DNA from: an uncultured Gammaproteobacteria bacterium
GTDB lineage: Bacteria; Pseudomonadota; Gammaproteobacteria; JAADHQ01
Direction: 5' to 3'
NCBI GenBank assembly: GCA_963807455.1
Contig: CAWECS010000010.1
Location: forward strand, 31,524 to 95,523
Length of the DNA: 64,000 bases
The notes below the pieces were generated by a model, which had not been told where the DNA came from, did not search any database, and saw only the letters and a program-made list of their open reading frames with translations. This document shows, piece by piece, positions 1-64,000 of this stretch; position 1 is the stretch's first letter; every line of letters starts with the position of its first letter. Both the position numbers and the translations under genes were made by a program.

Positions 1-235
1 CACTGGCAAATAATTCCTCGATGCGAATATGCGCAATGTCAACAAGCAGCATCTGATCTGTCACTTGCTGATCATCAGTGATGAGCAACTTGTCTCCAAC
101 CACCAGTAACCAGGTGTCACCAAAATCACCATTGGCCGAAATATCACTTTGTATAGCATATTCAACAGACTCGACCGCAAAAGCCTTATCTCTCATATCG
201 TGCAAAATGCTATCTGGTAGCTGCAAATGATCCAT
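1..235 (-). CDS. Partial CDS, N-terminal part only; the gene continues past the window start. Hypothetical protein.
   Basis: Reverse-strand reading frame opens with ATG at 233–235 and runs to position 1 without a stop (MDHLQLPDSILHDMRDKAFAVESVEY...). No recognisable family. Not in the ORF track because it has no stop inside the window. Confidence 0.35.
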   Translation of the reverse strand, partial: MDHLQLPDSILHDMRDKAFAVESVEYAIQSDISANGDFGDTWLLVVGDKLLITDDQQVTDQMLLVDIAHIRIEELFAS

Positions 236-264
236 TGATCGCCCGTCAAATTTAATATCTGACA

Positions 265-564
265 CTAGAGTTTCTCCAGTGGCAGTAGATTTTGTAGTGA
301 CAGTACATATTGTTGAAAATGCTGTCTTCCCTTGTCTGTCAGGCTATAGAAAGTCTGATTGCGCTTGTTGATCTGTTGCTTGCGACTTACTATATAGTCT
401 ACAGCAGATAATTTTTTTATATGCGCATCGAGATTCCCATCGGTCACTTGTAACAGCTCTTTCAGTTCCTTGAAAGTCGCCTCACCACGCCCGGCAAGAA
501 ACGCAACCAGGCGTGTACGCACCGGTTGATGCAGAATCGGATCCAGGGATTTTCCAGCGCTCAT
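265..564 (-). CDS. Small winged-helix transcriptional regulator
   Basis: 99 aa with a helix-turn-helix-like core (TFKELKELLQVTDGNLDAHIKKLSAVDYI). The stop and the downstream gene's start are 1 nt apart, so it is likely co-transcribed with the membrane protein at 566–1651. Confidence 0.5.
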   Translation of the reverse strand: MSAGKSLDPILHQPVRTRLVAFLAGRGEATFKELKELLQVTDGNLDAHIKKLSAVDYIVSRKQQINKRNQTFYSLTDKGRQHFQQYVLSLQNLLPLEKL

Positions 565-565
565 A

Positions 566-1651
566 CTATTCGTCCAGCAAGCCTCCCAGACGTCTTTGTG
601 TCCCTAAGTCCAGTGCACGCACCAGCTGCGGTCCTTGCTCGTTGCTCAAGATAGTTTTACGAACAAACTGACGGGTAAACAGCGCATCATTCCTTTCAAG
701 CCAGGGCCCATCAATGACCCGGTAGATACCCGTTGGATTTCCATCTTTAAATTCAAGATCAATGTCTTTAGAAATCTTCAAATTCAGACTGGTCTTTGCT
801 GCACCTTCAAACACATCACCACTAATACTGATATCAACGGGAACTTCAGTGCCTGCAGGTAGCCTGACAACATACATGCCTTCAGGTTTATGTTTCTGAA
901 ATTCAGACCATGACATGACTGTCTCACCATCGGCACTAATATCCAGATAATAATCCAGTCGATAGGCAAGCGCTGTTGTCATGAAGGCAACCAGCACCCA
1001 TGCCAGGGATAACATTATACATCTTGCTCTATTGGTCGCTAAGGGTTGCAACAATGCGATCGCGCAACTTCCTACTATAAAAATCGATGCTGTCAGCAGG
1101 CGAGACATATTGCCGGGATGCAAGATAAACATGATACCCAAGCCCAGCAACACCAAAACGATACCTGACCATCGGTACCAAAGTTCTGAATATAAGCCAA
1201 ACATGCTTAGCGCAATCCCGGTCAACAAAATGTAGACACCGAACATCTGGCGACCACCACCGAGAGATAGATTGGCATATACATCCAGCAGAAAGGCAAA
1301 TGCAAACAACATCCAGATAGCTAGCGTCACTTTATGCTGCACTATCGAAATGGATTCATCACGTAAGGCTCTTGCTGATCGCGTCATATGATAATCAATC
1401 CATATCACCGCCAGCAGTACAATGGCTAATAGACTAAAATGAAATACCTGACCCCAAACAGGATCGATCTCAAAAACCGATCTGGATATATCGTGCGAGA
1501 AGGCGGTAAGCAATCCAATCCCCCCTCCCCACAGCGGCAAGGTATGCTTTTCAAGTCGTATGCTGTTATGCCCATAAGCCAGCATTGACTGGATCGACTC
1601 CAGTTGAGTGTCTGCACTTATATTTTGTTTTTTCATGGACAGTAACCTCAA
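566..1651 (-). CDS. Membrane protein with about 7 TM helices and a C-terminal soluble domain; possibly DUF4401/GDYXXLXY-like.
   Basis: 361 aa. The N-terminal two thirds are strongly hydrophobic, and the C-terminal ~120 aa are hydrophilic. Forms an operon with the regulator. Confidence 0.45.
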   Translation of the reverse strand: MRLLSMKKQNISADTQLESIQSMLAYGHNSIRLEKHTLPLWGGGIGLLTAFSHDISRSVFEIDPVWGQVFHFSLLAIVLLAVIWIDYHMTRSARALRDESISIVQHKVTLAIWMLFAFAFLLDVYANLSLGGGRQMFGVYILLTGIALSMFGLYSELWYRWSGIVLVLLGLGIMFILHPGNMSRLLTASIFIVGSCAIALLQPLATNRARCIMLSLAWVLVAFMTTALAYRLDYYLDISADGETVMSWSEFQKHKPEGMYVVRLPAGTEVPVDISISGDVFEGAAKTSLNLKISKDIDLEFKDGNPTGIYRVIDGPWLERNDALFTRQFVRKTILSNEQGPQLVRALDLGTQRRLGGLLDE

Positions 1652-1855
1652 TAGTCAGAAAACTTCCACTCTGCAATACAGAGTGACATTTCAAAGATAC
1701 ACTCTGTAATGCAGAGCGTCAACTCATTATGAAAAAAAATTGATCAATATCATCATTGCCATTGTCAACCTCTCTACAATTACAATAATGATTTAGCTTT
1801 TTCATCATCAGGTTTTAGATGGCCAATACAAGTCACCAACACAAATACAGGAAGA

Positions 1856-3040
1856 TTGATCATTAATAATAACAAATCTCCGGCGGCCTTTCTCAGCCTG
1901 GGCTTCAGACCATTTTTTCTTGGTGCCGGGCTGTTCGCGTTTAGCGCCATTGCTCTGTGGATGGCTAGCTATACATTTAACTACAAACTCGGGATTAATC
2001 ATTTAACACTCTTGCAATGGCATGCCCATGAAATGATTTACGGCTATGGTATGGCTGTGATTGCCGGCTTTTTGCTGACGGCTGTCACTAACTGGACAGG
2101 CATTAAGACGCTAACAGGCTACTCACTGCTGATGCTGTTTGCATTATGGGTGCTGGCAAGGCTGTTACCATTTATGCAGATCGAAAACGGACTGGCATTA
2201 ATGTTCACCCTTGACTGCCTGTTTGGTGCGTACCTGGTCATTGCGTTAAGCATCCCTGTGATCAAAGCACGGCAATGGAAACAAATCGGTATAATTTCAA
2301 AAATTTTACTGCTGTTGATTGCCAATGTCGTGTTCTATCTGGGCGCCATGGGTTACCTCGAACAAGGCATACATTGGGGCACTTACGCAGGCATCTACCT
2401 CATTCTTGCACTGGTCTTGATGATGGCCAGACGTGTTCTCCCTTTCTTTATCGAGAAAAGCTGTGGCCTGACAACACCACTCATTAATCGGCCCTGGCTG
2501 GATAATGGCAGCCTGATCATATTCCTGTTTTTTATGCTTAGTGACATCATTGATCCATACACTTGGCTGACTTCATTATTGGCAACTGCACTCGCATTAC
2601 TGCATAGCTTGCGCCTGTATCACTGGCATGTTAAAGGTATCTGGAACAGGCCTTTGCTTTGGATTTTATATACCGCTTATTGTTTTATTACACTCGGTTT
2701 TGTCTTAAAGGCTGCTGTATTTTTGTTTGATATATCAGGCTTTCTGGCCTTACATGCATTTGCATTAGGTGGGATTAGTATTATGAGCATCGGCATGATG
2801 GCACGAGTCTCACTGGGACATACAGGCAGACCTGTAGATAAACCGCCATCAGCTTTAGCATGGATATTTACTTTCATAGTTGCAGCAGCATGCATGCGGG
2901 TCATTATGCCAATGATAGATTTTCAGCACTATTCACTATGGATTTTTATATCGCAGTTATTATGGCTATGTGCCTTCAGTGGATTTGTCGCGGTTTATTT
3001 TTCTGTGCTTACGCAGAAAAATGTTATCAGCAATCAGTAA
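1856..3040 (+). CDS. nnrS: NnrS-family haem-copper membrane protein (NO-response)
   Basis: 394 aa polytopic membrane protein. Carries the NnrS-type N-terminal motif LGFRPFFLGAGLF and conserved His in TM helices. Confidence 0.7.
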   Translation: MIINNNKSPAAFLSLGFRPFFLGAGLFAFSAIALWMASYTFNYKLGINHLTLLQWHAHEMIYGYGMAVIAGFLLTAVTNWTGIKTLTGYSLLMLFALWVLARLLPFMQIENGLALMFTLDCLFGAYLVIALSIPVIKARQWKQIGIISKILLLLIANVVFYLGAMGYLEQGIHWGTYAGIYLILALVLMMARRVLPFFIEKSCGLTTPLINRPWLDNGSLIIFLFFMLSDIIDPYTWLTSLLATALALLHSLRLYHWHVKGIWNRPLLWILYTAYCFITLGFVLKAAVFLFDISGFLALHAFALGGISIMSIGMMARVSLGHTGRPVDKPPSALAWIFTFIVAAACMRVIMPMIDFQHYSLWIFISQLLWLCAFSGFVAVYFSVLTQKNVISNQ

Positions 3041-3669
3041 GTTCTGTATTGAGACTTGCTATCAAAAAACTCATCGTTCAGATACTCAGCGACAGCCAGC
3101 ATGGTAGCGGCCGATGTACCCAGCTGGATATTCCTCATACTTTTTACATTGCTAACGATGGTTTCATCAATCAACAAGTCCGGCTTGGCAGTCCAGGCTT
3201 GATAGGCTTGTCGTTGCTGAGTACTACCAACAGCAATACATTCCGGATAGGCTGCCGGATAAAGACTTTCTTTTTGTCCGCGATCGGCATTTCCAACAGC
3301 GGCATATATTTTACAATGGGTATTGGCAAGAATTTCAAGTGCAGCCTTGACACTTGAGTTCGGTTTCATAAGACCTAATGGCAACACAACAACGTCAGCA
3401 TAGAGCTCCGCAGCCCAAACCAGCCCTCGTGCAAACGCCTGCGGTGAGCCAGCATTGGTGTCAGCAATCACTTTGCCCATGCTAACCTTAACTGTGCCTT
3501 TAAGGTTCTTCGACAAAATTTTCAACATAGATGAACCATGCGAAGCCGAATCTTCCAGGAACGGTTCATTGCAAAAAGTTTGCATGTAGCCACGCTCAAG
3601 ATTGAGATTATCCTGTTCTGACCAGTTTGCGCCGGTATCCAGCATAACTACATGGGGTACTTTAGCCAT
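3034..3669 (-). CDS. Minimal subtilisin-like (S8) serine peptidase with no signal peptide or pro-domain
   Basis: Asp/His/Ser triad motifs appear in subtilisin order (VVMLDTG, SASHGSS, GTSAATMLAVAEY). Likely start at the internal ATG at 3669, preceded by GGGAGAAAG. The 3' end overlaps the nnrS 3' end convergently by 7 nt. Confidence 0.55.
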   Translation of the reverse strand: MAKVPHVVMLDTGANWSEQDNLNLERGYMQTFCNEPFLEDSASHGSSMLKILSKNLKGTVKVSMGKVIADTNAGSPQAFARGLVWAAELYADVVVLPLGLMKPNSSVKAALEILANTHCKIYAAVGNADRGQKESLYPAAYPECIAVGSTQQRQAYQAWTAKPDLLIDETIVSNVKSMRNIQLGTSAATMLAVAEYLNDEFFDSKSQYRTY

Positions 3670-4153
3670 TCTTACTTTCTCCCTGAGAATATGATTTGGC
3701 ATTAACATAGATAATGGCTATTACACATTTCTAAACCGATATCTCCTTGTTTGTATCATTATATTGTCATGAACTTACAAATGACTTATTTAAATATATA
3801 TTAGCATAATCTAATATTTACTTCACTGGCAAACAAAATAGGGTTCGAACACCCTTACTGTGGATTCAAACCAACCCGTGTTCAAGTGAATAAAACACAT
3901 CGAAAACGTTAATATTCACCACTAAACACCAAAAGCACTATTCTACTTTTATTGTATGGTTTTTGGCAATAAATTGCCTGTGTTATCACCTAATCATCCA
4001 TTAATTAGCAAAAGAACAGGACGAAAATCAATAATTGGGCTATTATTCCCAATAATAGTGATGGCAGTCACAGAATTCAATAGCCACATTCTAAATAATT
4101 AAGCCCATAGCGTGATTCGGCCGCTACCACTATAAGCCCAATTAAATTTTATT

Positions 4154-5047
4154 ATGTCCACAACAAACACTGACACTTTACAAAACAATTTCGGAAAAAT
4201 TAATCCGAGAAGTATTAGCACTAAAAAAACGCTAGGTACGCGCGTATTCTTTGGTTTGATGTTTTTTGCCATTATTTACGGCTGGCTCAAACATGATGAT
4301 TTTTATTTATCCGCTGAAAGCGGCTTTGGATACTATCTGGGTATAGCCGGTGGTATCAGCATGCTGGTGCTACTGCTCTACCCCATCAGAAAGAAAGTCA
4401 GCGCCCTGAGAAATTTTGGACCTATCAGGTATTGGTTCAAAGCGCACATGGCTCTCGGCATTATCGGCCCAACACTGATTCTTTACCATGCTAATTATAG
4501 TCTTGGTTCCATCAATAGCAATGTCGCTCTCCTGTGTATGATTGTTGTCTCATTGAGTGGATTAGTAGGTCGTTTCATCTATACCCGTATTCATTATGGT
4601 TTGTATGGAGAAAAAATGACCCTGGCAGATTTGAAAGCAGACCTGGAAAAATCCCGATTAGACATAAACAAGCAATTTCTTTCATTCCCGGATATACAGG
4701 AGCAACTCAATCAGCTCGAAGCCATGGTGGCAAGAAGACGTAATTTTCTGGCACAAATAATAGTTATACCTGTGATCGCAATACGGATTTATTTTCGTCG
4801 TAAAAAAATCAAACGAACTTTGAAACAAGACCTGAAAAATAACAAAACCAGGCTAAACGATATAAATATGGATTTGTTAAAAGCATCCCTGCAAACCATC
4901 TATAACTATATTGAAACGATCCGACGTCTCGGACAACTGATGACCTATGAAAGACTATTTTCACTTTGGCATATTTTGCACCTGCCATTATTTATTATGC
5001 TGGTGATAACCGGGATCATTCATGTATTTGCTGTACATATGTATTAA
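4154..5047 (+). CDS. Integral membrane protein with 4–5 TM helices and paired His in the helices; possible b-type cytochrome or quinol-interacting anchor of the cytochrome cluster.
   Basis: 297 aa. Helices carry KAHMALGIIGPTLILYH and WHILHLPLFIMLVITGIIHVFAVH. A ~110-aa charged coiled-coil region lies between TM3/4 and the last TM. First gene after a 445-bp AT-rich spacer and directly upstream of the multiheme cytochromes. Confidence 0.4.
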   Translation: MSTTNTDTLQNNFGKINPRSISTKKTLGTRVFFGLMFFAIIYGWLKHDDFYLSAESGFGYYLGIAGGISMLVLLLYPIRKKVSALRNFGPIRYWFKAHMALGIIGPTLILYHANYSLGSINSNVALLCMIVVSLSGLVGRFIYTRIHYGLYGEKMTLADLKADLEKSRLDINKQFLSFPDIQEQLNQLEAMVARRRNFLAQIIVIPVIAIRIYFRRKKIKRTLKQDLKNNKTRLNDINMDLLKASLQTIYNYIETIRRLGQLMTYERLFSLWHILHLPLFIMLVITGIIHVFAVHMY

Positions 5048-5086
5048 AGAAGATCTTAAATCGTTGCAATAGAATGTTTAAGATCA

Positions 5087-6644
5087 ATGGATTCGGTTAT
5101 GAAAACGATTTTCGTGATAATGATGCTACTTGTAGCACCCTGTTTGTTTGCAGGCGCATTGGAAACACTGATGATGCCCGGGAAGCTGATTCAGCAACAT
5201 GAAAAATATGAGATTAAATGCGAAAACTGTCATGAAGTTTTCAGCAAAAAGAAACAGACGCGATTATGCAGGCAATGTCATGAGGAAGTTGATAAGGACA
5301 TAAAAGCAGAAAAAGGATTTCATGGAAGAATACCTAACATAAACAAAATTGAGTGCAATGCATGCCATACGGACCACAAAGGTAGAAATATCGATATTGT
5401 GAAACTGGACAAACAAACATTTGATCACGACAAGACTGATTTTAACCTAAAAGGAAAACATCAGTTTATCGCCTGTGATAGCTGTCATCAGCAGAAAAAG
5501 TACAGAGACACAAGCTCTCAATGCTACTCCTGCCATAAACAAAGTGACATTCATCACGGACGACTTGGAAAAAAATGCCAACAATGTCATTCCTCGGAAA
5601 GTTGGCTAGCAGCAGAATTCGATCACGAAAAGACAGACTTCAAGCTTAGAGGAAAACATAAAAAAACCAATTGTAACAATTGCCATATAAATCAGGAATA
5701 CAAAAAAACCCCTACACAATGCCATCAGTGCCATATAACCAAAGATATACATAACGGCATTTTTGGAAAAAAATGCGGCGATTGTCATAACACCAAACAA
5801 TGGGACGATTGCTGTATTTAATCATGACAAACAGACCGACTATAAACTGTCAGGCAAGCATCGTGACATTCAATGTGAATCCTGCCACCGTAATAATCCA
5901 TACCTGCATAAAACACCCAGCCAATGTAGCAAATGTCACAAAGACGAAGATGTGCATCAGGGTGTATACGGGCAGCAATGCCACTCGTGTCATTCAAGCA
6001 AAAACTGGCAGTCAATACATTTCGATCATAACCGTGATACTGACTTCAAGCTGAATAATAAGCATAATCTTACGCGTTGTGACAGTTGCCATAGGAGCAA
6101 CCCCTATAAAAACAAAACCGTGAGAAGCTGTTACTCTTGCCATAAACCAGATGACAAGCACCAGGGATCACAAGGAAAACAATGTGAGAATTGTCATAAT
6201 GATAAAAGCTGGTCGGACAAGGTAGCGTTTGATCACGATATTTCCAACTTCCCGCTGATTGGCTTACATGCCTCGGTTGCCTGTGAAGGTTGCCATATAG
6301 ACACTCACTACCGTAAAACCCCAAAGAATTGCAATGACTGCCATCAACAGGATGATGTCCACAAAGGTATGTTCAGTGAGAAATGTAATGATTGCCATAA
6401 CCCCAATGCCTGGAGTCGCTGGCAATTCGATCACAATACACAAACTGATTATCATTTAGAAGAATCGCATGAGAATCTGGAATGTCATGCCTGTCATTTA
6501 GTTGACCAGAAAATGACTAAACCGGATCAATTTTGTAATAGCTGCCATGCTAATGATGATGAGCATAATGGAAGTTTTGGTATCCAGTGCGACCGCTGCC
6601 ATACACAAGAGTCTTTCAGCATCATAAAAATGTCAGGCCATTAA
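5087..6644 (+). CDS. Periplasmic multiheme cytochrome c, about 21 CXXCH, of the paired/doubled-CXXCH (cytochrome c3/c7-like) module type. Split in this sequence by a +1 frameshift near 5809.
   Basis: Track ORFs 5087–5821 and 5763–6644 overlap in different frames. Both halves carry the same repeated unit W-x2-A-x-F-D/N-H-x2-T-D-F/Y-x-L-x-G-K-H-x5-C-x2-CH. Removing one T from gaTTgct restores ...KQWDDAVFNHDKQTDYKLSGKH... across the junction. N-terminal signal peptide present. Confidence 0.8.
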
Positions 6645-6656
6645 CATCAGCACTAA

Positions 6657-8247
6657 ATGGAGAAAACGATGAATATAAAATGGAAAAGAATAATACTCGT
6701 TAGCCTGTTGTTACTACCGGGAATAGCTTCATCTGCTGATACTTCAAAGCCTTTTGATCATTTTAATACCGGTTACCCGCTCGAAGGTGCTCATATGCAA
6801 GTAGAGTGTGAAACTTGCCATGTCAGAGGCATTTTTAAAGGAACACCAACACAATGTTCAGGTTGCCACAGTGCGGGCAGCACCATCAGTGCCAGCAAAA
6901 AGCCCTCTCATCATATTCAAAGTAATGAGAATTGTGGCGATTGTCATACCGACAAGAATTGGTCATCCGCACGAATGGATCATTCTTCTGTCACGGGTTC
7001 CTGTTTGACTTGTCATAATGGTACTACCGCTACGGGCAAGCATGCGCTGCATGTTCAAAGTAATAATACCTGCGAGGACTGCCACACCAGTAGCGCCTGG
7101 ATTCCCGCGCGCTTCGACCATAGTTCGGTCACAGCCACTTGTTCGACTTGCCACAATGGCACCACCGCCACCGGTAAACATGCCACGCATATCCAGAGCA
7201 ACAACACCTGTGATGATTGCCATACCAGCAGCGCCTGGATTCCCGCGCGCTTTGATCATACCAACATTACCGCCGCCTGCTTCTACCTGTCACAATGGCA
7301 CGACTGCCACCGGTAAACATGCCACGCATATCCAAAGCAACAACACTTGTGATGATTGCCATACCAGTAGCGCCTGGATACCTGCCCGCTTTGATCATAT
7401 TAATATTACAGCAGCCTGCTCTACCTGCCACAATGGCACGACGGCCACGGGTAAAAATCCGACACATATCCAGGCCAACAATACCTGTGATGACTGCCAC
7501 ACGACCAATGCCTGGATCCCGGCACGTTTTGACCACACCAACATTACCGCCGCCTGTTCTACCTGTCACAATGGCACCACGGCCACGGGTAAAAATCCAA
7601 CACATATCCAGTCAAACAATGTTTGCGATGATTGTCATACCACCAACGCCTGGATTCCAGCGAGATTCGATCACAATGCAGTCACGGCTGCGTGCTCTAC
7701 CTGCCATAATGGCACCACGGCCACGGGTAAAAATGCGACACACATCCAGACCAATAACACTTGCGATGATTGCCATACCACTACCGCCTGGATTCCGGCG
7801 AGATTCGATCACAATGCAGTCACGGCACCATGCTCTTCATGCCACAACGGTCAACAAGCTACGGGCAAGTCAAGTAGTCATTTCATCACCAGTCGACAGT
7901 GCGATAACTGCCATCGTAATACTAACTGGACGCCCAGTATTTTTACTCACGCAACAATGAATTATCCTGGCGACCATGGCGTTTCTCTAAATTGCATCGA
8001 TTGTCATACCGGCAATAACGAAACAGTTAACTGGAAAAATGCCGCTTACAAACCTGACTGTGCTGCATGCCATAGTGGTGATTTTAAATCTGGCCCGCAT
8101 AAAAAATATGAGAACCCGGATACCACTTATACTGTCAGTGAATTACGAGACTGCACAAGTAGCTGCCATATCTATACCAACAGCACTTTAACAACAATTA
8201 AAGAAAACAGGAATAGAGAACACTCTGTTACAAATAGAGAATTCTAG
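6657..8247 (+). CDS. Periplasmic multiheme cytochrome c, about 19–20 CXXCH, built from seven tandem 46-aa dihaem modules. Split in this sequence by a +1 frameshift near 7281.
   Basis: Track ORFs 6657–7316 and 7018–8247 lie in different frames. Repeat unit: ARFDHxxxTAxCSTCHNGTTATGKxxTHIQSNNTCDDCHTxxAWIP. The third repeat reads tgcTtctacc where all other copies read tgctctacc; the extra T breaks the frame. Signal peptide present. A CX3CH-like motif (CTSSCH) lies near the C-terminus. Confidence 0.8.
6960..7860 (+). repeat. Seven tandem ~138-bp repeats, about 85–95% nucleotide identity, inside the cytochrome gene
   Basis: Near-identical blocks recur at ~7050, 7188, 7320, 7460, 7598 and 7740 (for example catgccacgcatatccagagcaacaacacctgtgatgattgccatacc...). 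This also produces several long antisense and out-of-frame artefact ORFs in the track. Confidence 0.8.
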
Positions 8248-8253
8248 ATAACA

Positions 8254-8694
8254 GTGTTAGCACAAATTAAAAAAATGGATACGACGAGTTTAGCAATGTA
8301 CAAAGGATTTATTCTGGCTTTAGTCCTATGTAATGCTCCAGACTTGCATGCAGAGCCCCTGATAGACCATGTGAATAATGAGGTACAGAATAACCAGGAA
8401 ATTGTAGAAATTATTTTCAATACCCCGGTACAGTACCTTTACCACACACCAAAATCTGGCACGAAAACCATGTTGCTTGGTTTTTATATTCACCCATCAT
8501 GGAAGCAGAGCAGATCCTGGCACAGGCCGATATCATTCAAGCGCACCAAATACTTGCAAAGCATGGATATATATTCTGAACAGGGATTCAACCCGCATCT
8601 ATATCTTGAGTTTAATACCTTTGTGAATATTCAAGTACAACCGAGGAAGAACCTTCGTGGTTTTGTTTTAACACTAAGTGAACAAGAAAAATAA
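8254..8694 (+). CDS. Small lipoprotein-like protein, paralogous to the N-terminal domain of the downstream beta-barrel protein
   Basis: 146 aa. ...CNAPDLHAEPLIDHVNNEVQNNQEIVEIIFNTPVQYLYH... aligns with ...CIAITQPIIDHVDFNESAESIDIVLTFTLPVSYLSH... of the 819-aa protein. Confidence 0.5.
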   Translation: MLAQIKKMDTTSLAMYKGFILALVLCNAPDLHAEPLIDHVNNEVQNNQEIVEIIFNTPVQYLYHTPKSGTKTMLLGFYIHPSWKQSRSWHRPISFKRTKYLQSMDIYSEQGFNPHLYLEFNTFVNIQVQPRKNLRGFVLTLSEQEK

Positions 8695-11137: not shown

Positions 11138-11315
11138 CTCTCTCCCAAGAGCTATATTCACTGGACTATACGCCTTAAACTTGGCATGATTAAGCTATTC
11201 ATTTTATCACTCGATGGCGATGAATTTTCCACGCCTGAAACATGATTAAGACATAAAATAAATATGTTATTCAATCTTAATATGAACATAATCTAATGCC
11301 AGGGAACGAATCAAC

Positions 11316-12503: not shown

Positions 12504-12567
12504 TGATTGAAATATCAGCACTCCAGGACTAGCCAGGTTAACATCCTTGTTAGCAGGAAAATAATAC

Positions 12568-12976
12568 ATGAATAACATGAGATCCTTCGGCCATAAAGGA
12601 CTTACCTGGGATACAGGAAATTGGTCTGTTAGTTATTGCCATCGCTACTGTCATAGCATTGGGACTAGAAATTCATTCAATGATAAATGCCATGACGGTG
12701 ACGCTGGCAGATCTATTACTCATGTTTATTTATCTTTAAATACTGGCCATGGTCACTATCTATCTTGATTCAGGCAGGCTGCCAATCAGGATCCCTCTCT
12801 ATATTGCCATTGTCGCACTGGCGCGCTACATGATACTAAATATGAAAAATCTTGATACGGTTAGAATGCTGGATGTGGCGGGAGCAGTATTAATCATCTC
12901 TATTTCCGTGCTGATTAAACGCTACGGCCATTCCAGGTACCCTTATAATGACTCAGAACATGAGTGTTATTGCTAG
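12568..12976 (+). pseudogene. psiE: psiE-like (phosphate-starvation-inducible protein E) gene disrupted by an N-terminal frameshift (~12600) and an in-frame TAA (12737–12739)
   Basis: Three track pieces. Frame 1: MNNMRSFGHKGLTW. Frame 2: ...LPGIQEIGLLVIAIATVIALGLEIHSMINAMTVTLADLLLMFIYL*. The same frame continues after the TAA as MVTIYLDSGRLPIRIPLYIAIVALARYMIL...VLIISISVLIKRY. Joined across the frameshift and the stop, the pieces cover the whole length of the ~135-aa PsiE family. Confidence 0.55.
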
Positions 12977-13418
12977 TCTCTGTCACCAGATATTAAGGAA
13001 CCCGGATTTGCTACAGCAGGAAAAACATTATGCAACACTGGCCCCGATAATGTCGTTGGCTGGTATATTTGCGCATCCTGCAGCCAGCATAGCATTACCC
13101 TTGATACTGTTTTTCATATTTAACTGGCGGCAAATGGATTTTGCCAGACGCACTGCAATCCGGGCAGCCGACCTCGCCTTTACCATTTATTTATTTTTAA
13201 TACTGTCGAGTGCGTTATTGGCCGTCTATATTTCATTTAACCCTATGACCGATATACAGGCGCGTAGTATTACCATGAATATTACTATCGCTGCTGTTCT
13301 TTATCTTGGCATCTCTTTATTGATCGGCACTATTCAATCTTTTCGCGGCAAGTCATTCAAATATATTCTTTCATTGAAAATAGCAGAACGATTTCTATTA
13401 CTTCCAGAAGCACCCTGA
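12948..13418 (+). CDS. Hypothetical small membrane protein with 3–4 TM helices
   Basis: 156 aa, hydrophobic. The start is uncertain because the 5' end overlaps the psiE remnant. Confidence 0.4.
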   Translation: MTQNMSVIASLCHQILRNPDLLQQEKHYATLAPIMSLAGIFAHPAASIALPLILFFIFNWRQMDFARRTAIRAADLAFTIYLFLILSSALLAVYISFNPMTDIQARSITMNITIAAVLYLGISLLIGTIQSFRGKSFKYILSLKIAERFLLLPEAP

Positions 13419-13434
13419 CTTCTGGTGGCTTTTT

Positions 13435-14124: not shown

Positions 14125-14126
14125 GT

Positions 14127-15989: not shown

Positions 15990-16070
15990 TTATATCCGGA
16001 ATATTTCGCAGGGTGAATTCCCTATTTTTTAATAATAGACTCATCGTACAAATGATAATACATTATGAAT

Positions 16071-16094
16071 AAAAAAGCCCCGCCTGAGCGGGGC
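16071..16094 (-). terminator. Rho-independent terminator for the symporter operon
   Basis: GCCCCGC-ctga-GCGGGGC hairpin, followed on the minus strand by TTTTTT, 23 nt downstream of the symporter stop codon. Confidence 0.7.
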
Positions 16095-16116
16095 CAGACT
16101 TCATGATAAAACTGAA

Positions 16117-18239: not shown

Positions 18240-18418
18240 CAGGCCTGTCAGTTTAGAATTTAATTATAAGGAATGACTATCTTAAGATAACTTTTGCTAA
18301 TGGTACAGAGAGCAATTGTTAAAATCGATGAATTAACCGCAAGGAAGGCATTGGCTAATAATATACTAATTTTCTAATAGATAACTCCAAACGATAACAT
18401 GGTCACATATGGCATTAC

Positions 18419-18808
18419 ATGCCTTCGAGCGTAGCGCCAGCGATAGCCAGTGACCTATCTAAAAAGAAAGACTGGCATATTGCCCGCACTTCACTGAAGA
18501 CCCGCAACCCCGCGAACACCCCGGAGGCATGGGAACGGCAGGTATTAACCCGGTTTGAAGATCAAAAAACTCAAGGGATAGATCCAACAAAAATGGAATA
18601 CCATCAGGTTGTCAATGTAAGCTGAGTAAGAAAGTTTCGTTACATGAAAGCGATTCCGACAGGCGGAGTTTGCATCGCCTGTCATGGCGCCGAACTTGAT
18701 CCTGCCATCGCACAGAAGATTAATGAACTATACCCTGACGATCAGGCGACAGGATACAAGCCAGGAGATATACGTGGCGCATTTACAATCAGCCAAACAA
18801 TCCAGTAA
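18419..18808 (+). pseudogene. DUF3365 (Tll0287-like haem-binding domain) gene remnant: N-terminally truncated and carrying an in-frame TGA at 18623–18625
   Basis: Reads ...WHIARTSLKTRNPANTPEAWERQVLTRFED...QVVNVS*VRKFRYMKAIPTGGVCIACHGAELDPAIAQKINELYPDDQATGYKPGDIRGAFTISQ. This carries the conserved DUF3365 motifs (RNPxN, CxACHG, YPxDxAxGY). There is a stop 8 codons upstream of the first ATG, and the signal peptide plus ~70 N-terminal residues are missing. Confidence 0.5.
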
Positions 18809-19065
18809 TTAGGTGAGAGTTGTCGGTATTAACACTTAGCTTGCAGTACCTGTTACTGTATTTAACATTTGGCATTAAAGCTCATAGCAAAATTATCTAT
18901 TCGCTTGTCAATTAGATTAATTTTCTATTCTGCCTCGAATATCTTAAAAACTCACTGGCATAATTATTATTTTTCTCTATATTAGTGTTGGGTGATGGTG
19001 AAGCACGAAGGACTAGTAGAACCGCACTCATAATTGATACAAACAACGTTCACAAGGAGTTAACG

Positions 19066-24884: not shown

Positions 24885-25101
24885 CTAGAATCTTACGCTT
24901 GCCAAAATAATATATAGATAAAGTGACGGCCTCAATTGATCGATGCAACACATGCATTATATAATATTTTTTGCATCTATTTAAAATAGTCCGAACCAAT
25001 CACTTTTTTCTGCGGCTTCAAGCTTACCTGCCAATGCCTGATTGCCTGACTGGCGAGCTAAATCAGCAGCCGTGTGTTTATCTTTATTGCGCATAGAAGC
25101 A

Positions 25102-26898
25102 TTAGCGCCATTCTTCAATAATAAGTTTTATTATGGCATCATTGCCTTTTTCAGCAGCATACATTAAAGCGGTATAGCCGTGTTTGTTGGTATTATTTAC
25201 ATCCACTTTCTTTTGCAAAAACAGTTTCACCAGCTCAAGCCGCCCGGATTTTGAGGCAATCATTAATCCGTTATTTCCACTACTGGTGGTTTGATGTGCA
25301 TCCGCGCCTGCTTTCAGTAATAAATTAATACTGGCCTTGTCTCCACGGGCAGTCAATTCAGTCAGCAAAGTGGCGCCGTCCAGATTGCGTTGATTAATAT
25401 CTGTTTTGTTTTTCAGTAATACTCTGGCCGCTTCACGATGACCGGCAAGCAGTGCATACCATAATGCATTCTGTTGTTGCTTGTCTTGTAGCAGTGAGTC
25501 GGCGCCACAAGCTAACAATGCCGTGACAACACGGGTATGCCCCTGATCGGCTGACAACATTAATGCTGTCAAACCATCTTTTCTGCGCGAATTTATGCTG
25601 CCTGGAGTTTTCCTGCATAATGTAGAAACGACTTGTTTATGACCATGACGTGATGACAACATTAATGCTGTTTGCCCAACCTGGTCTTTTTGTGCTGGAT
25701 TCGCACCATGTGAGAGCAGGTGCGCTACTACACTGGCATGGCCAGCACGTGCTGACAACATTAGCGCGGTCAACTGTTGCTTGGATGCCTGATTAACATT
25801 AGCGCCTTTATTAATGAGTTTATTTACCATACTCATGCGCCCCTTCCATGCTGCGCGCATTAAAGCTGTGTAACCTTCCTTGTCTACTGCATTCAGGTTT
25901 TGCTGTAGATTGATCTGCTCGTTAAAAATTGCTTGTTCGCCTGTCCATGCGGCCAGCATTAATAGCGTCCAGCCTTTATACGGGCCGTTAGTGATTAAAG
26001 CCTGCTGTTGCTTTATCCGTTGCTGTTGACTGACCCGTGGCTTTTGACTCTTTTTATTATCTACATAGGTTTGCAGTAAATCCGCTACTTTTTTATGTTT
26101 GTACTCAACGGCCAGTTGATGGGCCGTTAGATTATCTGCATTTTTGAAGCGCACATTTGCTCCGGCACTCACTAACAGGCTAACTATTGGGTAATCACCC
26201 TGTCTGGCTGCAAGCATTAACGCCGTCATACTGTCATTATTACGCGCATTCAGGTTTGCTTTATAACTAATCAGTAATTTAACCATGCGCTGATGACCTT
26301 GTATCACCGCGATTTGCAGCAAACTGTTACCTTTTTTATCGGCGGCATTACTATTTTCACCCTGTCGCAACATTGATCTGGCGCGTTCAACATCACCCTT
26401 TTTTACGACTTGTGGTAATAAACGATTGTTGCTGCCGGTTGACAGGCTGCCCTGGGTAATTTGCTTTTGCAGTTTTAGTAATGCCTGTTTTGCATGGCGG
26501 TTATTTTGAGCGGCAGATTTTTGATACCAGGCACTGGCTGCTTGCAGATCCTGTTTTACACCAAGACCTTGTTGGTACATTTGACCCAGTTGGTATTGGG
26601 ATTTCGCATGACCCTGCTGGGCCGCGCGCCGATACCAATCTGCAGCCTTATCATGACTACGACTCACGCCAGTTCCATTGCGATAAAATGTTGCCAGTTT
26701 GTACTGCGCGTCAACATTATTATTTTTTGCCAATGGCTGGCAAAGTCTGAACGCCTCTTTAAAATCTTTCAGTCTGATGGCCTGATTGACTGCCTCCAGA
26801 TCATTGGCAAGCAACAAACTGGAGGTGCACAGTAACAACAAACCTGCTATCCACTGAATCATTCTATTACTCGGTTCCATACTTGGTTTCAACTTCAA
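25102..26898 (-). CDS. Secreted Sel1-repeat plus ankyrin-repeat protein
   Basis: Signal peptide. Four or more Sel1/TPR-like repeats (AQYKLATFYRNGTGV..., SQYQLGQMYQQGLGV...). About 10 ankyrin repeats follow (GNSLLQIAVIQGHQRMVKLLISYKANLNARN..., repeating TALMLAAxxGH...LLxxGAxVN). Confidence 0.8.
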   Translation of the reverse strand: MKLKPSMEPSNRMIQWIAGLLLLCTSSLLLANDLEAVNQAIRLKDFKEAFRLCQPLAKNNNVDAQYKLATFYRNGTGVSRSHDKAADWYRRAAQQGHAKSQYQLGQMYQQGLGVKQDLQAASAWYQKSAAQNNRHAKQALLKLQKQITQGSLSTGSNNRLLPQVVKKGDVERARSMLRQGENSNAADKKGNSLLQIAVIQGHQRMVKLLISYKANLNARNNDSMTALMLAARQGDYPIVSLLVSAGANVRFKNADNLTAHQLAVEYKHKKVADLLQTYVDNKKSQKPRVSQQQRIKQQQALITNGPYKGWTLLMLAAWTGEQAIFNEQINLQQNLNAVDKEGYTALMRAAWKGRMSMVNKLINKGANVNQASKQQLTALMLSARAGHASVVAHLLSHGANPAQKDQVGQTALMLSSRHGHKQVVSTLCRKTPGSINSRRKDGLTALMLSADQGHTRVVTALLACGADSLLQDKQQQNALWYALLAGHREAARVLLKNKTDINQRNLDGATLLTELTARGDKASINLLLKAGADAHQTTSSGNNGLMIASKSGRLELVKLFLQKKVDVNNTNKHGYTALMYAAEKGNDAIIKLIIEEWR

Positions 26899-28166
26899 TT
26901 CCGACTTCTTTCAACATGGGAGTAGGTAAGATACCGCCTGCACTGACAATAATGGCATCATTATCAATTTCGATGCGATCACCTTGCTGCTCGATTTCGA
27001 CTGAATTTTTATGTATTTGCTGAACATTGGATTTAAACATCACCCTTAGTCGACCCGCTTTTTCAGCTTGCTCTACTTTTTGTCTGTTTTTTTCCTTGGC
27101 ACGCGCAAAGGCTTCACTACGATAAGACAAGGTCACCGTAGTTCCCTGCTGTTCAGCAATACTGGTGGCAGCCTCCAGTGCGCTGTCACCACCACCCACG
27201 ACCAATACATGCTGGCCTTTGTATTGCTCAGGATCGATCAAGCGATACACCACCTTGGGTAGTTCCTCCCCCGGTACACCGAGTTTCCTAGGGCTGCCAC
27301 GTCTGCCAATCGCGAGCAATACCTTTGCAGTTGTGTAACTCGCTTTGTTTGTTTTGATTTCAAAACCTTGATCTGTGGGTGTTATCGATCAGCATGTTTT
27401 CCTGGTAGTTAATTTTAATGCCGGTTTTTTTCTCGACCTCCTGCCACATTTCCAGCAGGGCCTCTTTGGTCGTTTCCCTTACTTTGACTTTACCTATAAT
27501 GGGCAACTGCATGGGTTGGGTCATGACAATTTTTCCGCGTGGAAAATTAAATACGGTACCCCCCAGACTTTCCTGTTCGAGTGTCAGGTATCTGAGCCCT
27601 TTTTGCTTTGCTCCCAGAGTAGCCGAGAATCCTGCGGGTCCGGCACCAATGATGATGACATCATAATCACCCGATCCATTTTTGTTATTGGCAATAGCTT
27701 CCAGGGCCTGGCGTCCCTGTTCGACTGCATTTCGAATCAAACCCATGCCACCCAGTTCGCCGGCGATATAGATACCCGGCACATTGGTTTGAAAATCCGG
27801 ATTTACCTGCGGAATATCCACCCCGCGTTTTTCTGTCCCGAACACCAGTGTAATCGCATCGACTGGACAAGCTGTTTTACACGCACCATGACCAATGCAA
27901 TGCGATGGGTTGATCAGGTGAGATTTCCCTTGAATCAGTCCGAGCACATCTCCTTCGGGGCAGGCTGTAATGCAGGATGCACAACCAATACATTTGTGCA
28001 CTTCAATGACCGGGTGCAAAGATGCCGGCTCTGCAAGCCCTTCTGCTTCTGCTTGTTTTAATTTGGACAGGTTGCCTGACTGCTTACGCGTCTGATAAAT
28101 CGCATACAAGGCGATAAAAATCACCGGTAGTGAATAAAATACCCATTGAATCTGATCGGCATCCAT
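26867..28166 (-). CDS. Membrane-anchored FAD/NAD(P)-dependent oxidoreductase with an N-terminal 2x[4Fe-4S] ferredoxin domain, split by an apparent 1-nt frameshift near 27390
   Basis: Track ORFs 27360–28166 (TM helix, two Cx2Cx2Cx3CP motifs, FAD fold DYDVIIIGAGPAGFSA...) and 26867–27319 (NAD fold VLVVGGGDSALEAA...) are in different frames. The downstream frame, read upstream of its annotated start, encodes the protein-like stretch SITPTDQGFEIKTNKASYTTAKVLLAIGRRG; removing one nucleotide near 27390 joins it to the upstream ORF (...KINYQENML-SITPT...), so the two pieces form one gene. Confidence 0.6.
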
Positions 28167-53468: not shown

Positions 53469-54878
53469 CTACATCCTCATCGTCATGGGCTGTGCCATTA
53501 ACCACAGGTCAAATCCATGCATTAATAATGCGAAAATAATAATCGGTAACACCCAGAGTTTACTGGTTGCGTGAAGGCTAAAGCCCCGATAACGAATCAC
53601 CTGTATCGCTAACCAGAAACCGAATAACATCAGACCAGCCTGCAACCAGAACAGCGTATCCTGCGAAATAATCATTTGCATATGACGCTGATGTTTTTCC
53701 ATCATACTTAACGGTTGTGTTCCTATGCCCAAAGGATTCAGGAACAGAGCCACAAGATCATGTGACTCCCTGACCAGGTGATTCAGGTTATGGGCAATAT
53801 GATAGGAAAATGCCAATGGCAGGGACACGAACGCCAGTGCTGAAAAAACCTGCCGGTATCGATTCCCTGCTGCCATCCATTTATTGGCCCAATACACCAG
53901 CAACGCATATATACCGATAGGTGCCAACATGATAAACAACATGCCCACACTAAAACTGAATAGTAACTGTCCCGAATCACCGACCCAGCGACCGAATTGA
54001 CTCATGCCATCGAACCAGAATGGCAACATGGTAATACCGTGAAAACTGGTCAGGGTCAGTAGACCAAGCATGAACCAGGCCTCATCCCAGCGTGGTCTTG
54101 CATCCTGCTTCACTTCGACACTCTGTGGACGCAGTTGCCAGGATATATTCTGATGCGGACAACTCTGAACACAATTGCCACAAGAGGTACAAAAGGTATT
54201 TTGTTTGAGCGTTCCCATGACCAGGTTGGTGGGGCACGGCTCGATCAGGTCGGATCCATGATAACATTCCAGTGTCTTACAATCCGCACACACATCGTGA
54301 TTAATAGGCCTCAATTCCACGGGTGCCAGCTGCGAATAATAACCTACCGTTCTCCCTACTGGACAAAAATAGTGACAAAATGCCTTGTTCTCGAATAACG
54401 CCAGGGAGATCGTTGCCATGACCACCATTAGCAATGATAGCAGTGCTGTCGCATAAGGGGCCGTGGTCACACCGACACCCAGTTCAAACCAGGTCAGCGC
54501 CATAAACATCAGCAAGGCAGGCCAGACATTGCGTAACCAGGCAGGCACTTTCAGGTTAAGACTGTTATTAGGCTTGGCCCGCTTCCATAGTCGCCGGCGT
54601 ACGAGCCAGGTGGCGATCGCATCCCATGGGCAGATGGCACACCAGGCCGAGCCCAGAAAGAAAATGACAATAATCAGACCTGCCCACCACAAATTCCAGG
54701 TCAATACCGTGGCCAGGTTTCGCTCCGGTACCTGGGTCCCCTGCAGTCCCGCGATGATCACTGTCATAAAGATAGTCACTGCCACTATTTTCAAAAACAA
54801 TAATGGCCATGGACTCGCATTCAGGAAGCGCACCAGCCATCCAATGAGCGGAATCTTGCCTAGGGACAGACTCAGCAT
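53469..54878 (-). CDS. NapH/MauN-family integral-membrane polyferredoxin, long form with an extra C-terminal membrane domain
   Basis: CxxxCP-type motifs in a membrane context (SAWCAICPW, FCHYFCPVG) plus two soluble ferredoxin motifs (CTSCGNCVQSCP). 469 aa. Confidence 0.65.
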   Translation of the reverse strand: MLSLSLGKIPLIGWLVRFLNASPWPLLFLKIVAVTIFMTVIIAGLQGTQVPERNLATVLTWNLWWAGLIIVIFFLGSAWCAICPWDAIATWLVRRRLWKRAKPNNSLNLKVPAWLRNVWPALLMFMALTWFELGVGVTTAPYATALLSLLMVVMATISLALFENKAFCHYFCPVGRTVGYYSQLAPVELRPINHDVCADCKTLECYHGSDLIEPCPTNLVMGTLKQNTFCTSCGNCVQSCPHQNISWQLRPQSVEVKQDARPRWDEAWFMLGLLTLTSFHGITMLPFWFDGMSQFGRWVGDSGQLLFSFSVGMLFIMLAPIGIYALLVYWANKWMAAGNRYRQVFSALAFVSLPLAFSYHIAHNLNHLVRESHDLVALFLNPLGIGTQPLSMMEKHQRHMQMIISQDTLFWLQAGLMLFGFWLAIQVIRYRGFSLHATSKLWVLPIIIFALLMHGFDLWLMAQPMTMRM

Positions 54879-55560
54879 GCCTTGCCTTGACAGGCACCCT
54901 GGCTAACAACGCCCATACTGATACCAGCAACATAAAGGCCCAGACCAGATAGACCAGATACTCAGGCAAGCCCGGATGGCTCATCACCATCAGGCTTTTA
55001 TCCTGCTGAGCCGTCTGTATCTTCCCTCTCAGCAAACGTTTTCTTTGTGCAATATTGACCAGCACGAGTACAGAAAAAATCGCCATCGCGGCTATACCAA
55101 TCGGACCAATGGCTGAATCCTGCCCTATCTTTAATGGAAAATCGATCGTGTAGGGCTCACCTTGCGCGTGAAAATTTGCGCTGATAATATATTTACCCGC
55201 TTCATTGATCAGAAAGCCCTGCCGGTAAACTCCATCATCAATATTCTGCGTTCCCAAAGTTTCTCGATGGCCACCGAACCAGCGATCATCACGTATTGTA
55301 AATTCGACCTGGCCATCAAATGGCTTGCCACTGTCACGATGCGTAGCATACAGATTCAAGCGCCCCTGCTTACCCGGCTCGGGAAAGGCGGGATAAACCA
55401 TGTAGGTGACGTAGTAATTACCTATCTGGGTTTCAACCTGCATACTGGGCGGGGTGTTGGAATCCTCACTCAGGCTGTAAGCAGGTCGACCGAGGACATG
55501 GTGTGCGCTAACACTGTCACTAACTAAAATTGCCATCAAGCAGATCAGTGTTCGAATCAT
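54879..55560 (-). CDS. Periplasmic protein with signal peptide and His-His motif, ending in a TM helix. Its frame runs without a stop into the napH-like gene; the 3' boundary is unresolved and a frameshifted fusion is possible.
   Basis: The track ORF 54568–55560 is protein-like only for its first ~225 aa (MIRTLICLMAILVSDSVSAHHVLGRPAYS...TM LVYLVWAFMLLVSVWALLA). The remainder overlaps the napH-like gene out of frame. Confidence 0.4.
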
Positions 55561-61410: not shown

Positions 61411-61926
61411 AGCGCTCCTTTTTCTTTTGTTTGAGAGATTCAATAACAGCGTGCTGTTACAGTGCGCTCGCAGACACTGCGACATATTGACGCAGGTCAA
61501 TAAACGCACTGAAAATGTGCAAACAAATCCATTTTTTGCAGCAAATCAGTGCCTGCAACTATTAACTCTGCTTAAACGTTTCACACGATCATGGATATCT
61601 GACAGGCTTTTTTAGACGATTATTTATTTTATATTCATATAGTTATACAATTTATGACTTCATATGAATAAACAAATTCCGGATTGCTTATTCGCCATAT
61701 TTATAAAGGCATTACTAATCTAATGGCAAATAGCGGATCATCCTGCCCCACTCGGCCGGCTTCCTCTGTTATAGTTCGCTCACATTATTGGCCTGACAAG
61801 ATTCGGCGAAGGTGCATGAGAACACTCCCCGCCGCAGCCATACTCTGTCATAAGCGTCAGAGAGCAGTGTTGTTACCAATAGATGCCAATAACATTACAT
61901 TTTGATATCACTAAGAGGATAGACAC

Positions 61927-63112
61927 ATGATCAAGCCTATTGGATCAGACGAACTGATGCCGTTGTTTGTTTATGACACTGATAAACATGATGCTATAAG
62001 CAAAGAAGCCGAGGGCTTGCCTTCGGTCATTATCAGTTCAGCTGCTGCGGGTAATGCCGTCATGATGGGAGGTGGTTACTTCACACCGCTGACCGGTTAC
62101 ATGAACGTTGCCGATGCGGTCAGTGTCGCTGAATACCATGAAAACCACATCTGGCCAATTCTTTCCGGTGCCGGTTTTAAACCTGGTTGAAAATGCCGAT
62201 GGCATTAAAGTCGGTAGCCGCATCGCCCTGCGTGACCCCAATGTCGATGGCAATCCTGTCATTGCCGTGCAAACAGTTGAAGCCATCGAAACCGTCACTG
62301 ATGAACAAATGGCTCACATGACCGACAAGGTCTATCGTACTGACGATATGGAACACCCTGGTGTTAACGCCTTCAATACAGTGGGCCGTATAGCTATTTC
62401 AGGCCCAATTGAGGTTCTCAACTTCAGTTACTTCAACACTGAATTCCCGGATACTTTCCGCACTGCGGTTGAAATACGCAACGAGATTATGGAACACGGC
62501 TGGAAGAAGGTCGTAGCCTTCCAGACCCGTAACCCCATGCATCTGGCTCACGAAGAACTTTGCCATATGGCCATGGAACGCCTGGGTTGTGACGGCCTGG
62601 TTATCCATATGTTACTGGGCAAGCTCAAGCCTGGCGATATCCCTGCACCTGTACGTGATGCAGCTATTCGTAAAATGGTTGAAGTCTACTTCCCGCCCAA
62701 TAGCGCCATGGTCACCGGCTACGGTTTCGACATGCTCTATGCCGGCCCACGTGAAGCAGTGTTGCATGCCTATTTCCGTCAAAATATGGGCGCAACGCAC
62801 TTTATCATTGGCCGTGATCACGCCGGTGTTGGTGATTACTATGGTGCCTTCGATGCACAAACCATCTTCGAAACTGATGTACCTGCAGGTGCGCTGGAAA
62901 TTGAAATGTTTATGGCTGACCATACTGCCTGGTCGAAGAAGTTGGACAAGGTTGTCATGATGCGCGAAGTTGACGATCACGCGAAAGAAGACTTTGTGCT
63001 CTTGTCGGGAACCAAGGTACGCGAAATGCTCGGTAATGGCGAAGCGCCACCGAAGGAATTTTCACGTCCTGAAGTAGCCAAAATATTGATTGATTATTAC
63101 CAGAGCCTATAG
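61927..63112 (+). CDS. sat: Sulfate adenylyltransferase (dissimilatory ATP sulfurylase) Sat, interrupted by a 1-nt frameshift at ~62134–62137
   Basis: Track ORFs 61927–62190 (MIKPIGSDELMPLFVYD...NAVMMGGGYFTPLTGYMNVADA...) and 62108–63112 (...GQFFPVPVL...QTRNPMHLAHEEL...GRDHAGVGDYYG...) are in different frames. Dropping one base in gaaTACCatg gives a continuous ~395-aa Sat. Confidence 0.8.
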
Positions 63113-63129
63113 TTTTTTTACCTGGCTTA

Positions 63130-63164
63130 AAAAAACAAACCCTCCTGATGGAGGGTTTGTTTTG
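63130..63164. terminator. Bidirectional rho-independent terminator between sat (+) and cheV (-)
   Basis: aaaaaa-CAAACCCTCC-tgat-GGAGGGTTTG-ttttg. Confidence 0.8.
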
Positions 63165-63181
63165 CCTGATAACAAAGCAAT

Positions 63182-64000
63182 TTATGTCATACTTTCTTCT
63201 GCGGTTTTTTTCAAAAAGGGTGTTAAGGTTTTTGCCAGTTCTGCGGCATGAAACTTCGGACAATAAGCATCAGCACCGACAGACTTGCCAAGGTTCATAT
63301 TGGCATCGGCTGACAGTGAAGAATGCATTACCACAGGAATATGCTTCAGACGGTTATCAGTCTTCACCTTACGGGTTAACACATAGCCATCCATCCCTGG
63401 CATTTCTATATCAGTCAGTATCAGCGAGACCAGTGTATCTACTGGCACATTGCTCTCTTCTGCTCTGGATGCCAGTTCATCGAGTTTTTCCCAGGCTTCA
63501 ACACCGTTCTTAGCCATGATGGTATTCACACCCATCGCCTTCAGTGCACCCTGAATCTGTTTACGTGCGACTGAGGAATCATCGGCAAACAATACCGTGG
63601 TGCGCACACCGACATCTTCTATTTCTGCAAAGACATCTTCCTCATCACCCATGGAAGATGTTTCGGCCAATACTTTCTCTACGTCCAGCAACATCACAAT
63701 ACGCTGGTCCTTCAACTCCGAAACTGCCGTCACCAGGCCGCCATGACGATGCGCCATCATCGGTGGTGGTACCCTGATATCATTCCATTCCATACGTAAA
63801 ATCTGCTCGACAGAGTTGACCAGAAAACCCTGTATGGCCCTGTTATATTCGGTCACGATCAGAATTTGTGGAGGATCACTTACATCCAGATCGCAAAAAT
63901 GACCCAAATCGATAACCGGAATCATCGTGCCACGTAAACTCACCATGCCCTCAACACCTGGAGGCATATCGGGTGCCCGGGTAATCTCAGGAAGATTCAT
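63182..64000 (-). CDS. cheV: Chemotaxis protein CheV (CheW-like domain plus receiver domain). Partial: the N-terminus continues past the window end.
   Basis: CheW-like region (...ITRAPDMPPGVEGMVSLRGTMIPVIDLGHF...) followed by a REC domain (...ILTDIEMPGMDGYVL...). The CheW domain is missing ~40 aa at the window edge. Confidence 0.7.
   Translation of the reverse strand: MNLPEITRAPDMPPGVEGMVSLRGTMIPVIDLGHFCDLDVSDPPQILIVTEYNRAIQGFLVNSVEQILRMEWNDIRVPPPMMAHRHGGLVTAVSELKDQRIVMLLDVEKVLAETSSMGDEEDVFAEIEDVGVRTTVLFADDSSVARKQIQGALKAMGVNTIMAKNGVEAWEKLDELASRAEESNVPVDTLVSLILTDIEMPGMDGYVLTRKVKTDNRLKHIPVVMHSSLSADANMNLGKSVGADAYCPKFHAAELAKTLTPFLKKTAEESMT

Follow-up and report, generated by a model that had tools for sequence, protein, structure and literature searches.

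The 64-kb stretch of contig CAWECS010000010.1 analysed here (positions 31,524 to 95,523 of the contig, hereafter the window), from an uncultured gammaproteobacterium, contains eight genes interrupted by frameshifts: those for two multihaem cytochromes (A and B), PsiE, an ankyrin/Sel1 repeat protein, a ferredoxin/flavin oxidoreductase, a periplasmic protein, the NapH-like polyferredoxin membrane protein encoded beside it, and ATP sulfurylase (sat). Judged from the sequence, these eight frameshifts are likely to be insertion-biased consensus errors of the source assembly and not mutations of the organism. A consensus error is favoured because the eight events are all very recent, consist of insertions only, are in part not of the kind left by slippage, and include one in sat beside an intact aprBA. 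The living cell would then probably possess intact genes for cytochromes A and B, the ankyrin protein, the oxidoreductase, the periplasmic protein, the NapH-like protein and Sat, and perhaps an intact psiE as well. The sole convincing real pseudogene of the window is a fragment of a DUF3365/Tll0287-like gene, which is a genuine old remnant. An earlier, sequence-only reading of the same DNA had set technical indels against real pseudogenisation; a split between technical indels and a real DUF3365 pseudogene is indeed favoured by the present analysis, but neither the homopolymer mechanism nor the decay of a giant or host-restricted type that was then considered has held up.

Location and direction of the lesions

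The lesions (Table 1) were mapped on alignments with relatives whose genes are uninterrupted, namely L001/L003, L002, L027 and L086-L094. L001/L003 correspond to a syntenic 41-kb MEGAHIT contig (ENA k141_76261), a short-read assembly with 78-92% nucleotide identity to the window; L002 is a further relative from that sample, and L027 (JAADHQ010000004) is a contig of a metagenome-assembled genome (MAG) that spans the nap-sat region. All of the interruptions listed in the sequence-only reading exist. To these the frameshift of the ankyrin/Sel1 gene is now added, and the junction of the periplasmic and NapH-like genes, where a frameshift had been thought possible, holds two +1 sites, one in each gene. 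The former estimate of about one lesion per 8 kb is accordingly too low: there are 10-11 lesions, about one per 6 kb, in nine of approximately 57 genes (~16%).

Table 1. Interrupted genes of the window and their lesions (window positions; lengths are those after repair).
Gene	Coordinates	Strand	Product	Lesion
Cytochrome A	5087..6644	+	518 aa, 21 CXXCH	+1 within 5807-5811 (GAC[GATTG]CTG)
Cytochrome B	6657..8247	+	529 aa, 19 CXXCH	+1 at 7279-7282 (CTGC[T]TCTACC)
psiE	12568..12966	+		extra G (GG>GGG, 12608-12610); nonsense codon GAA>TAA, 12737-12739
DUF3365/Tll0287-like remnant	18419..18808	+	PF11845 positions 35-142/144 only	in-frame TGA, 18623-18625
Ankyrin/Sel1 repeat protein	24981..26883	-	633 aa	+1 within 25113-25129, best fit TTTT 25126-25129
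Fer4/Pyr_redox oxidoreductase	26867..28166	-	432 aa	+1 within 27377-27390, best fit 27388
NapH-like polyferredoxin membrane protein	53469..54990	-	506 aa	+1 at 54872-54874
Periplasmic partner	54990..55560	-	189 aa	+1 near 54993-55006, exact position ambiguous
sat (ATP sulfurylase)	61927..63112	+	394 aa	T inserted at 62134, GAAACC>GAATACC

Measured against the intact orthologues, the frameshift is a net +1 in all eight genes (two-sided binomial P=0.008, or P=0.016 without the ambiguous periplasmic site), and there is no 1-bp deletion among the coding lesions of the window. Deletion of one base returns four of the products to the length of their orthologues (518 vs 518/519 aa for cytochrome A, 432 vs 432 for the oxidoreductase, 394 vs 394 for Sat and 506 vs 506 for the NapH-like protein); the agreement is less exact for PsiE (135 vs 132 aa), the ankyrin protein (633 vs 626 aa) and cytochrome B (529 vs ~660 aa). 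No stop or indel was found in the ~9 kb of affected coding sequence beyond the lesions listed, and six to seven of the disrupted genes carry a single lesion only. Along the ~30 kb over which the syntenic short-read relative can be aligned, it shares none of the lesions of the window.

The window has 80 coding homopolymers of at least 6 nt, 27 of them 7-8 nt long, and not one carries an insertion; at sat, at the NapH-like gene and, by the best fit, at the oxidoreductase gene, the insertion is at a non-repeat position. The insertion sites are thus unlike those of replication slippage, since the long homopolymers are untouched and non-repeat positions are struck. It had been proposed that short homopolymers are the site of several indels, which would reflect errors of pyrosequencing or nanopore-type data, and that indel position should be compared with homopolymer length. 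That comparison has now been made, with the result just given. Homopolymer-length miscalls of the pyrosequencing, Ion Torrent or nanopore kind are very unlikely to account for the lesions, although a short run may have been lengthened at three or four of the eight sites at most: psiE (GG>GGG), cytochrome B (T>TT), the ankyrin gene (AAA>AAAA) and possibly the oxidoreductase gene (GG>GGG). The runs of at least 6 nt are where such errors concentrate, the T in sat splits a run of AAA, the extra base of the NapH-like gene is an A flanked by G on both sides, and deletions are wholly absent, while undercalls are the typical homopolymer error of nanopore data.

The two lesions in psiE (12609/12737, 128 bp apart) and the two at the periplasmic/NapH-like junction (54873/55005, 132 bp apart) form tight pairs, a degree of clustering with P~0.01 under uniform placement, which suggests local patches of low quality. 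The spacing within these pairs is approximately the length of a short read. A sequence motif, GCTGA/TCAGCA, occurs at or beside three to four of the eight insertion sites (54872, 55005, 27388 and 62134), and the stop of the DUF3365 remnant (18623) is found in AGCTGAGTA; as a motif for insertion it was rejected as unproven, with a family-wise permutation P of 0.06-0.14 over all k-mers. The polarity of 1-bp indels in intergenic DNA relative to the relatives was uninformative, both directions being seen at 75-80% identity.

How an assembly might acquire such lesions

If the insertions are errors of the consensus, the underlying process would be one that adds bases and never removes them, at positions that are essentially random. 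Two routes to such a pattern are conceivable. The first would be incomplete polishing of an assembly made from long reads of a chemistry prone to insertions, or made at coverage that was low or uneven. Raw reads of the PacBio type carry insertions at ~8% and deletions at ~3%, and even after polishing, long-read assemblies keep frameshifts, as do metagenome assemblies of low coverage (bioRxiv 10.1101/2021.08.23.457338). The window resembles assemblies of this kind in that lone single-base indels break conserved genes and the removal of one base restores the length of the orthologue, and it shares the excess of insertions with raw PacBio-type data. Its source contig, 237,174 bp long, is moreover unannotated, and no short-read (Logan) copy of it was found. 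It differs in its rate of eight per 57.7 kb (~1.4e-4 per base) and in the complete lack of deletions, both of which are estimated from one window.

The second route would be the collapse of strain or allele variation, in which both alleles of a single-nucleotide polymorphism are written as consecutive bases. The site in cytochrome B fits such a collapse, as sister units of its repeat have TGC-TCT and TGT-TCT and the window has TGCTTCT. In Trypanosoma brucei the collapse of alleles into a mosaic consensus has given rise to apparent frameshifts (PMC8445201). Many related populations were found together in the same metagenomes. A comparable process would account for insertion-only lesions at non-repeat sites, and each insertion site of the window could be taken as a pair of alternative bases; any insertion beside a differing base can, however, be read in this way, and the fit is hence no test.

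Whichever route applies, the distinction has practical consequences. Taken literally, the frameshifts would lead to the annotation of an organism without Sat, two large cytochromes, the oxidoreductase and the NapH-like complex, and to the impression of a decaying genome. The biological interest of the lesions is low, and their value lies mainly in quality control: the pattern offers a cheap, read-free flag for consensus artefacts in unannotated MAGs, namely lesions that are insertion-only, lie at non-homopolymer sites, occur one per gene and leave the ratio of nonsynonymous to synonymous substitution rates (dN/dS) flat across the shift.

Selection on the interrupted genes and the case for real decay

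The sequence-only reading had asked for dN/dS analysis of the disrupted genes, and this gives no sign of relaxation. Values for the repaired genes range from 0.03 to 0.13, compared with 0.014-0.16 in 14 intact neighbours, and the segments downstream of the shift are constrained much as those upstream (0.076 vs 0.060 in cytochrome A, 0.050 vs 0.049 in the oxidoreductase gene, 0.04-0.09 vs 0.02 in sat). With so large a synonymous divergence (dS) to the nearest relatives, 0.4-1.9, these ratios show only that the genes, if inactivated at all, were inactivated very recently.

It is unlikely, on balance, that the frameshifts are real recent alleles. On that reading eight genes, sat among them, would very recently have been lost, either throughout the lineage or from some of the chromosome copies of a polyploid cell or mixed population, and decay would be at an early stage. 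The disrupted fraction of the window, ~16%, is comparable to that of Candidatus Thiomargarita nelsonii Bud S10, whose annotation marks 1120 of its 7125 genes as disrupted and in which polymerase chain reaction has confirmed one frameshift (PMC4853749), and the gene content of the window (apr, sat, soe and nap) is likewise that of a sulfur oxidiser. The presence of two lesions in psiE and of the genuine DUF3365 relic in the same window would also be in keeping with decay, and the intact SoeABC could render Sat dispensable. All eight frameshifts are insertions, however, whereas bacterial genomes usually show small deletions no less often than insertions. Several of these insertions are of a non-slippage type at non-repeat sites while the long homopolymers remain untouched. 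There is also no secondary decay, dN/dS does not increase beyond the shifts, and coding density is ~90% (~57.7 of 64 kb).

In the latter respects the window departs from Ca. T. nelsonii and from host-restricted bacteria alike, being coding-dense, under unrelaxed selection, insertion-only in its lesions, and free of mobile elements and miniature inverted-repeat transposable elements in the open reading frames (ORFs) examined; no transposase is among the Pfam domains found in those ORFs. No Beggiatoaceae are among the top 120 AprA matches. The nearest named relatives by AprA and NapA are unclassified Gammaproteobacteria or MAGs labelled Granulosicoccaceae, which also sets the window apart from Ca. 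T. nelsonii. The suggestion that the interruptions resemble those of host-restricted or very large sulfur bacteria is therefore not upheld by coding density, selection or ancestry.

A more specific form of the same idea, that the +1 insertions are real and represent an insertion-biased, non-slippage burst in a sulfur oxidiser or in a subset of its genome copies, appears improbable. On this view sat, the two cytochromes, the oxidoreductase and the NapH-like complex would have been lost within less than about 1% of sequence divergence. Real lesions would thus be a record of gene loss in a free-living sulfur oxidiser by an unusual, insertion-biased burst.

Several observations nevertheless weigh against an origin in the assembly. 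The dS values given above leave dN/dS blind to a very recent inactivation. Two of the affected loci, psiE and the periplasmic/NapH-like pair, bear two lesions each, as real pseudogenes also may. A disruption of 16% is not impossible biologically, given the genome of the giant sulfur bacterium just discussed (PMC4853749). Nucleotide identity to the nearest DNA recovered reaches only 78-92%, such that the designation of the lesions as artefacts is an inference from their pattern. No contig of the same species was recovered in the scan of genome contigs (best match 81% amino acid identity) or of metagenome contigs (best 95% amino acid and ~84% nucleotide identity).

A further reading, in which the extra bases are decoded by programmed +1 ribosomal frameshifting or by quadruplet decoding, is scarcely credible. 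All shifts are indeed +1 and the frames downstream are under strong purifying selection, but the sites have no slippery or quadruplet motif or codon context in common, there is no in-frame stop or rare codon at the shift, where the zero frame stays open over a further 4 codons in the shortest case and over 100 in the longest, and the extra base is present in none of the orthologues from more than 160 related loci. Consensus error remains the favoured reading of the eight insertions, and the individual genes are considered below.

Multihaem cytochromes A and B

Cytochrome A is broken into ORFs at 5087-5821 and 5763-6644. Its relatives, with 84% and ~75% identity, are intact at 518/519 aa, and the alignment of the DNA has one 1-nt gap in 1558 nt, the site of which was also identified by the repair scan. 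In cytochrome B the insertion falls within a tandem repeat of 138 bp (46 aa), in a unit that now measures 139 bp; the shifted unit has CTGCTTCTACC in place of the CTGCTCTACC or CTGTTCTACC of its sister units. The orthologue in L001 has a single open frame of ~660 aa with more repeat units. Repaired, cytochromes A and B keep all 21 and all 19 of their haem motifs, respectively.

The repeat itself (7068-7811) has two CXXCH haem sites per 46-aa unit and is present in 5.4 units in the 529-aa product of the window, as against ~660 aa or more in relatives, a difference that could reflect either real variation in copy number or collapse of the repeat in assembly. In L001 the ENA gene caller placed the cytochrome B region on the wrong strand.

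Ankyrin/Sel1 protein and oxidoreductase

In the ankyrin/Sel1 gene the final 46 codons lie in another frame. A tblastn search with the 626-aa orthologue returns two high-scoring segment pairs in differing frames, and the alignment and the repair scan agree on a +1 shift. In the adjacent oxidoreductase gene the Pfam domain Pyr_redox_3 is divided between two ORFs (profile positions 1-92 and 106-282). More than 100 homologues measure 430-440 aa, the closest being 432 aa long and 92% identical. The DNA alignment has one 1-nt gap in 1300 nt, and the repair scan recovers the 432-aa product.

Periplasmic protein, NapH-like protein and sat

The two lesions at the periplasmic/NapH-like junction are best understood together. 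In the upstream periplasmic gene an extra base in the last ~5-15 codons abolishes the stop, and the ORF reads on to 54568; with one base removed, the tail becomes KIQTAHRIKA* (KIQ.AHRD..* in relatives) and the stop and start codons overlap as TGATG, as they do in relatives. The first 39 codons of the NapH-like gene (MVMSHPGLPEYL...) are cut off from the remainder and lie in the frame of the periplasmic gene. In nearly all of 80 NapH-like relatives the N-terminus is extended by an open stretch of ~40-75 codons or more, the closest of them start with M.MTHPGLP, and the repaired length is that of the L027 protein.

The periplasmic protein (~190 aa, with the C-terminal anchor ...RKRLLRGKIQ) and the ~506-aa NapH-like protein form a conserved pair in more than 60 genomes (loci L006-L094). 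In many genomes the pair lies near NapA, usually with an ATGA or TGATG overlap of stop and start. No Pfam family was found for the periplasmic partner. In some Magnetococcales the frame stays open over the 680-1035 nt that precede the NapH-like start, a possible sign of fusion.

In sat the T at 62134 splits a run of AAA, and the flanks in L086 are identical except for this base. In the large ORF the Pfam domain PUA_2 begins only at profile position 65. The 80 metagenomic sat loci retrieved have up to 95% amino acid identity, and all 80 of these relatives match residues 1-394 in a single, unshifted segment.

psiE and the DUF3365/Tll0287 remnant

Nonsense codons occur in psiE and in the DUF3365 gene, and had been considered more typical of real pseudogenisation; the evidence bears this out for the second gene and is less clear-cut for the first. 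The psiE gene was compared with the intact 132-aa PsiE of L001, to which it has 92% nucleotide identity, and the repaired product matches PF06146 over profile positions 1-121/122. As its omega of 0.10 gives no indication of relaxed selection, the nonsense codon does not allow a firm classification, and may be either a real allele or a substitution error.

The DUF3365/Tll0287 fragment, in contrast, is held to be a real relic because its 5' end has been lost, a stop codon is present and the gene is absent from the closest syntenic relative. The truncation has removed the N-terminus, and the fragment is without a signal peptide. It begins immediately next to the conserved region that precedes the DUF4212-SSF operon, and in the syntenic relative the segment in which it lies (18378-18948) is represented by just 175 bp.

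Gene content of the window

By its gene content (apr, sat, soe and nap) the host of the window is a sulfur-oxidising, nitrate-respiring gammaproteobacterium. The GC content varies from 44 to 51%. Pfam searches assign to the 5' part NnrS, the two multihaem cytochromes with their outer-membrane partners, NhaA and PsiE, followed by a DUF294/SSF/DUF4212 block, a PAS histidine kinase, the ankyrin/Sel1 protein and the ferredoxin-flavin oxidoreductase. Further along are ccmABCDEFGHI, a porin, an 801-aa multihaem cytochrome, aprBA, soeABC, a nap cluster with the additional periplasmic-protein/NapH-like pair, and sat. The long operons had been described as intact, and this is confirmed for ccm, aprBA, soeABC and the core nap genes. 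No tRNA was found in the 64 kb, and Rfam models had no match anywhere in the window.

Two other candidate lesions were considered and set aside. An apparent frameshift between the ORF at 36580-37263 and the TPR gene at 37178-37963 reflects two separate genes, the second with a signal peptide of its own, and an indel relative to L086 at 61424 lies upstream of the start codon of the dihaem cytochrome c. The 801-aa cytochrome (37992-40397) is intact. Between aprA and the gene for a CxxCxxCC-domain protein there is a gap of 486 bp (41610-42096) with only an implausible ORF and no Rfam match, at the position where sulfur oxidisers often have aprM or qmo.

Mosaic relationship to the syntenic relative

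The identity of the window to k141_76261 is mosaic. The block from psiE to DUF4212 (12387-18378) is 92-98% identical in nucleotides, with a dS of 0.15-0.4, and the blocks on either side of it (1843-11262 and 24983-35351) are 78-82% identical, with a dS of 0.8-1.4. This uneven divergence suggests that the psiE-to-DUF4212 block has recently been recombined or transferred between lineages. The NhaA gene (11316-12503) and a block of four genes at 21558-24884 (GFA, carbon-nitrogen hydrolase, methyltransferase and LysR) are present in the window and missing from the otherwise syntenic relative, and on this comparison are read as small insertion/deletion islands.

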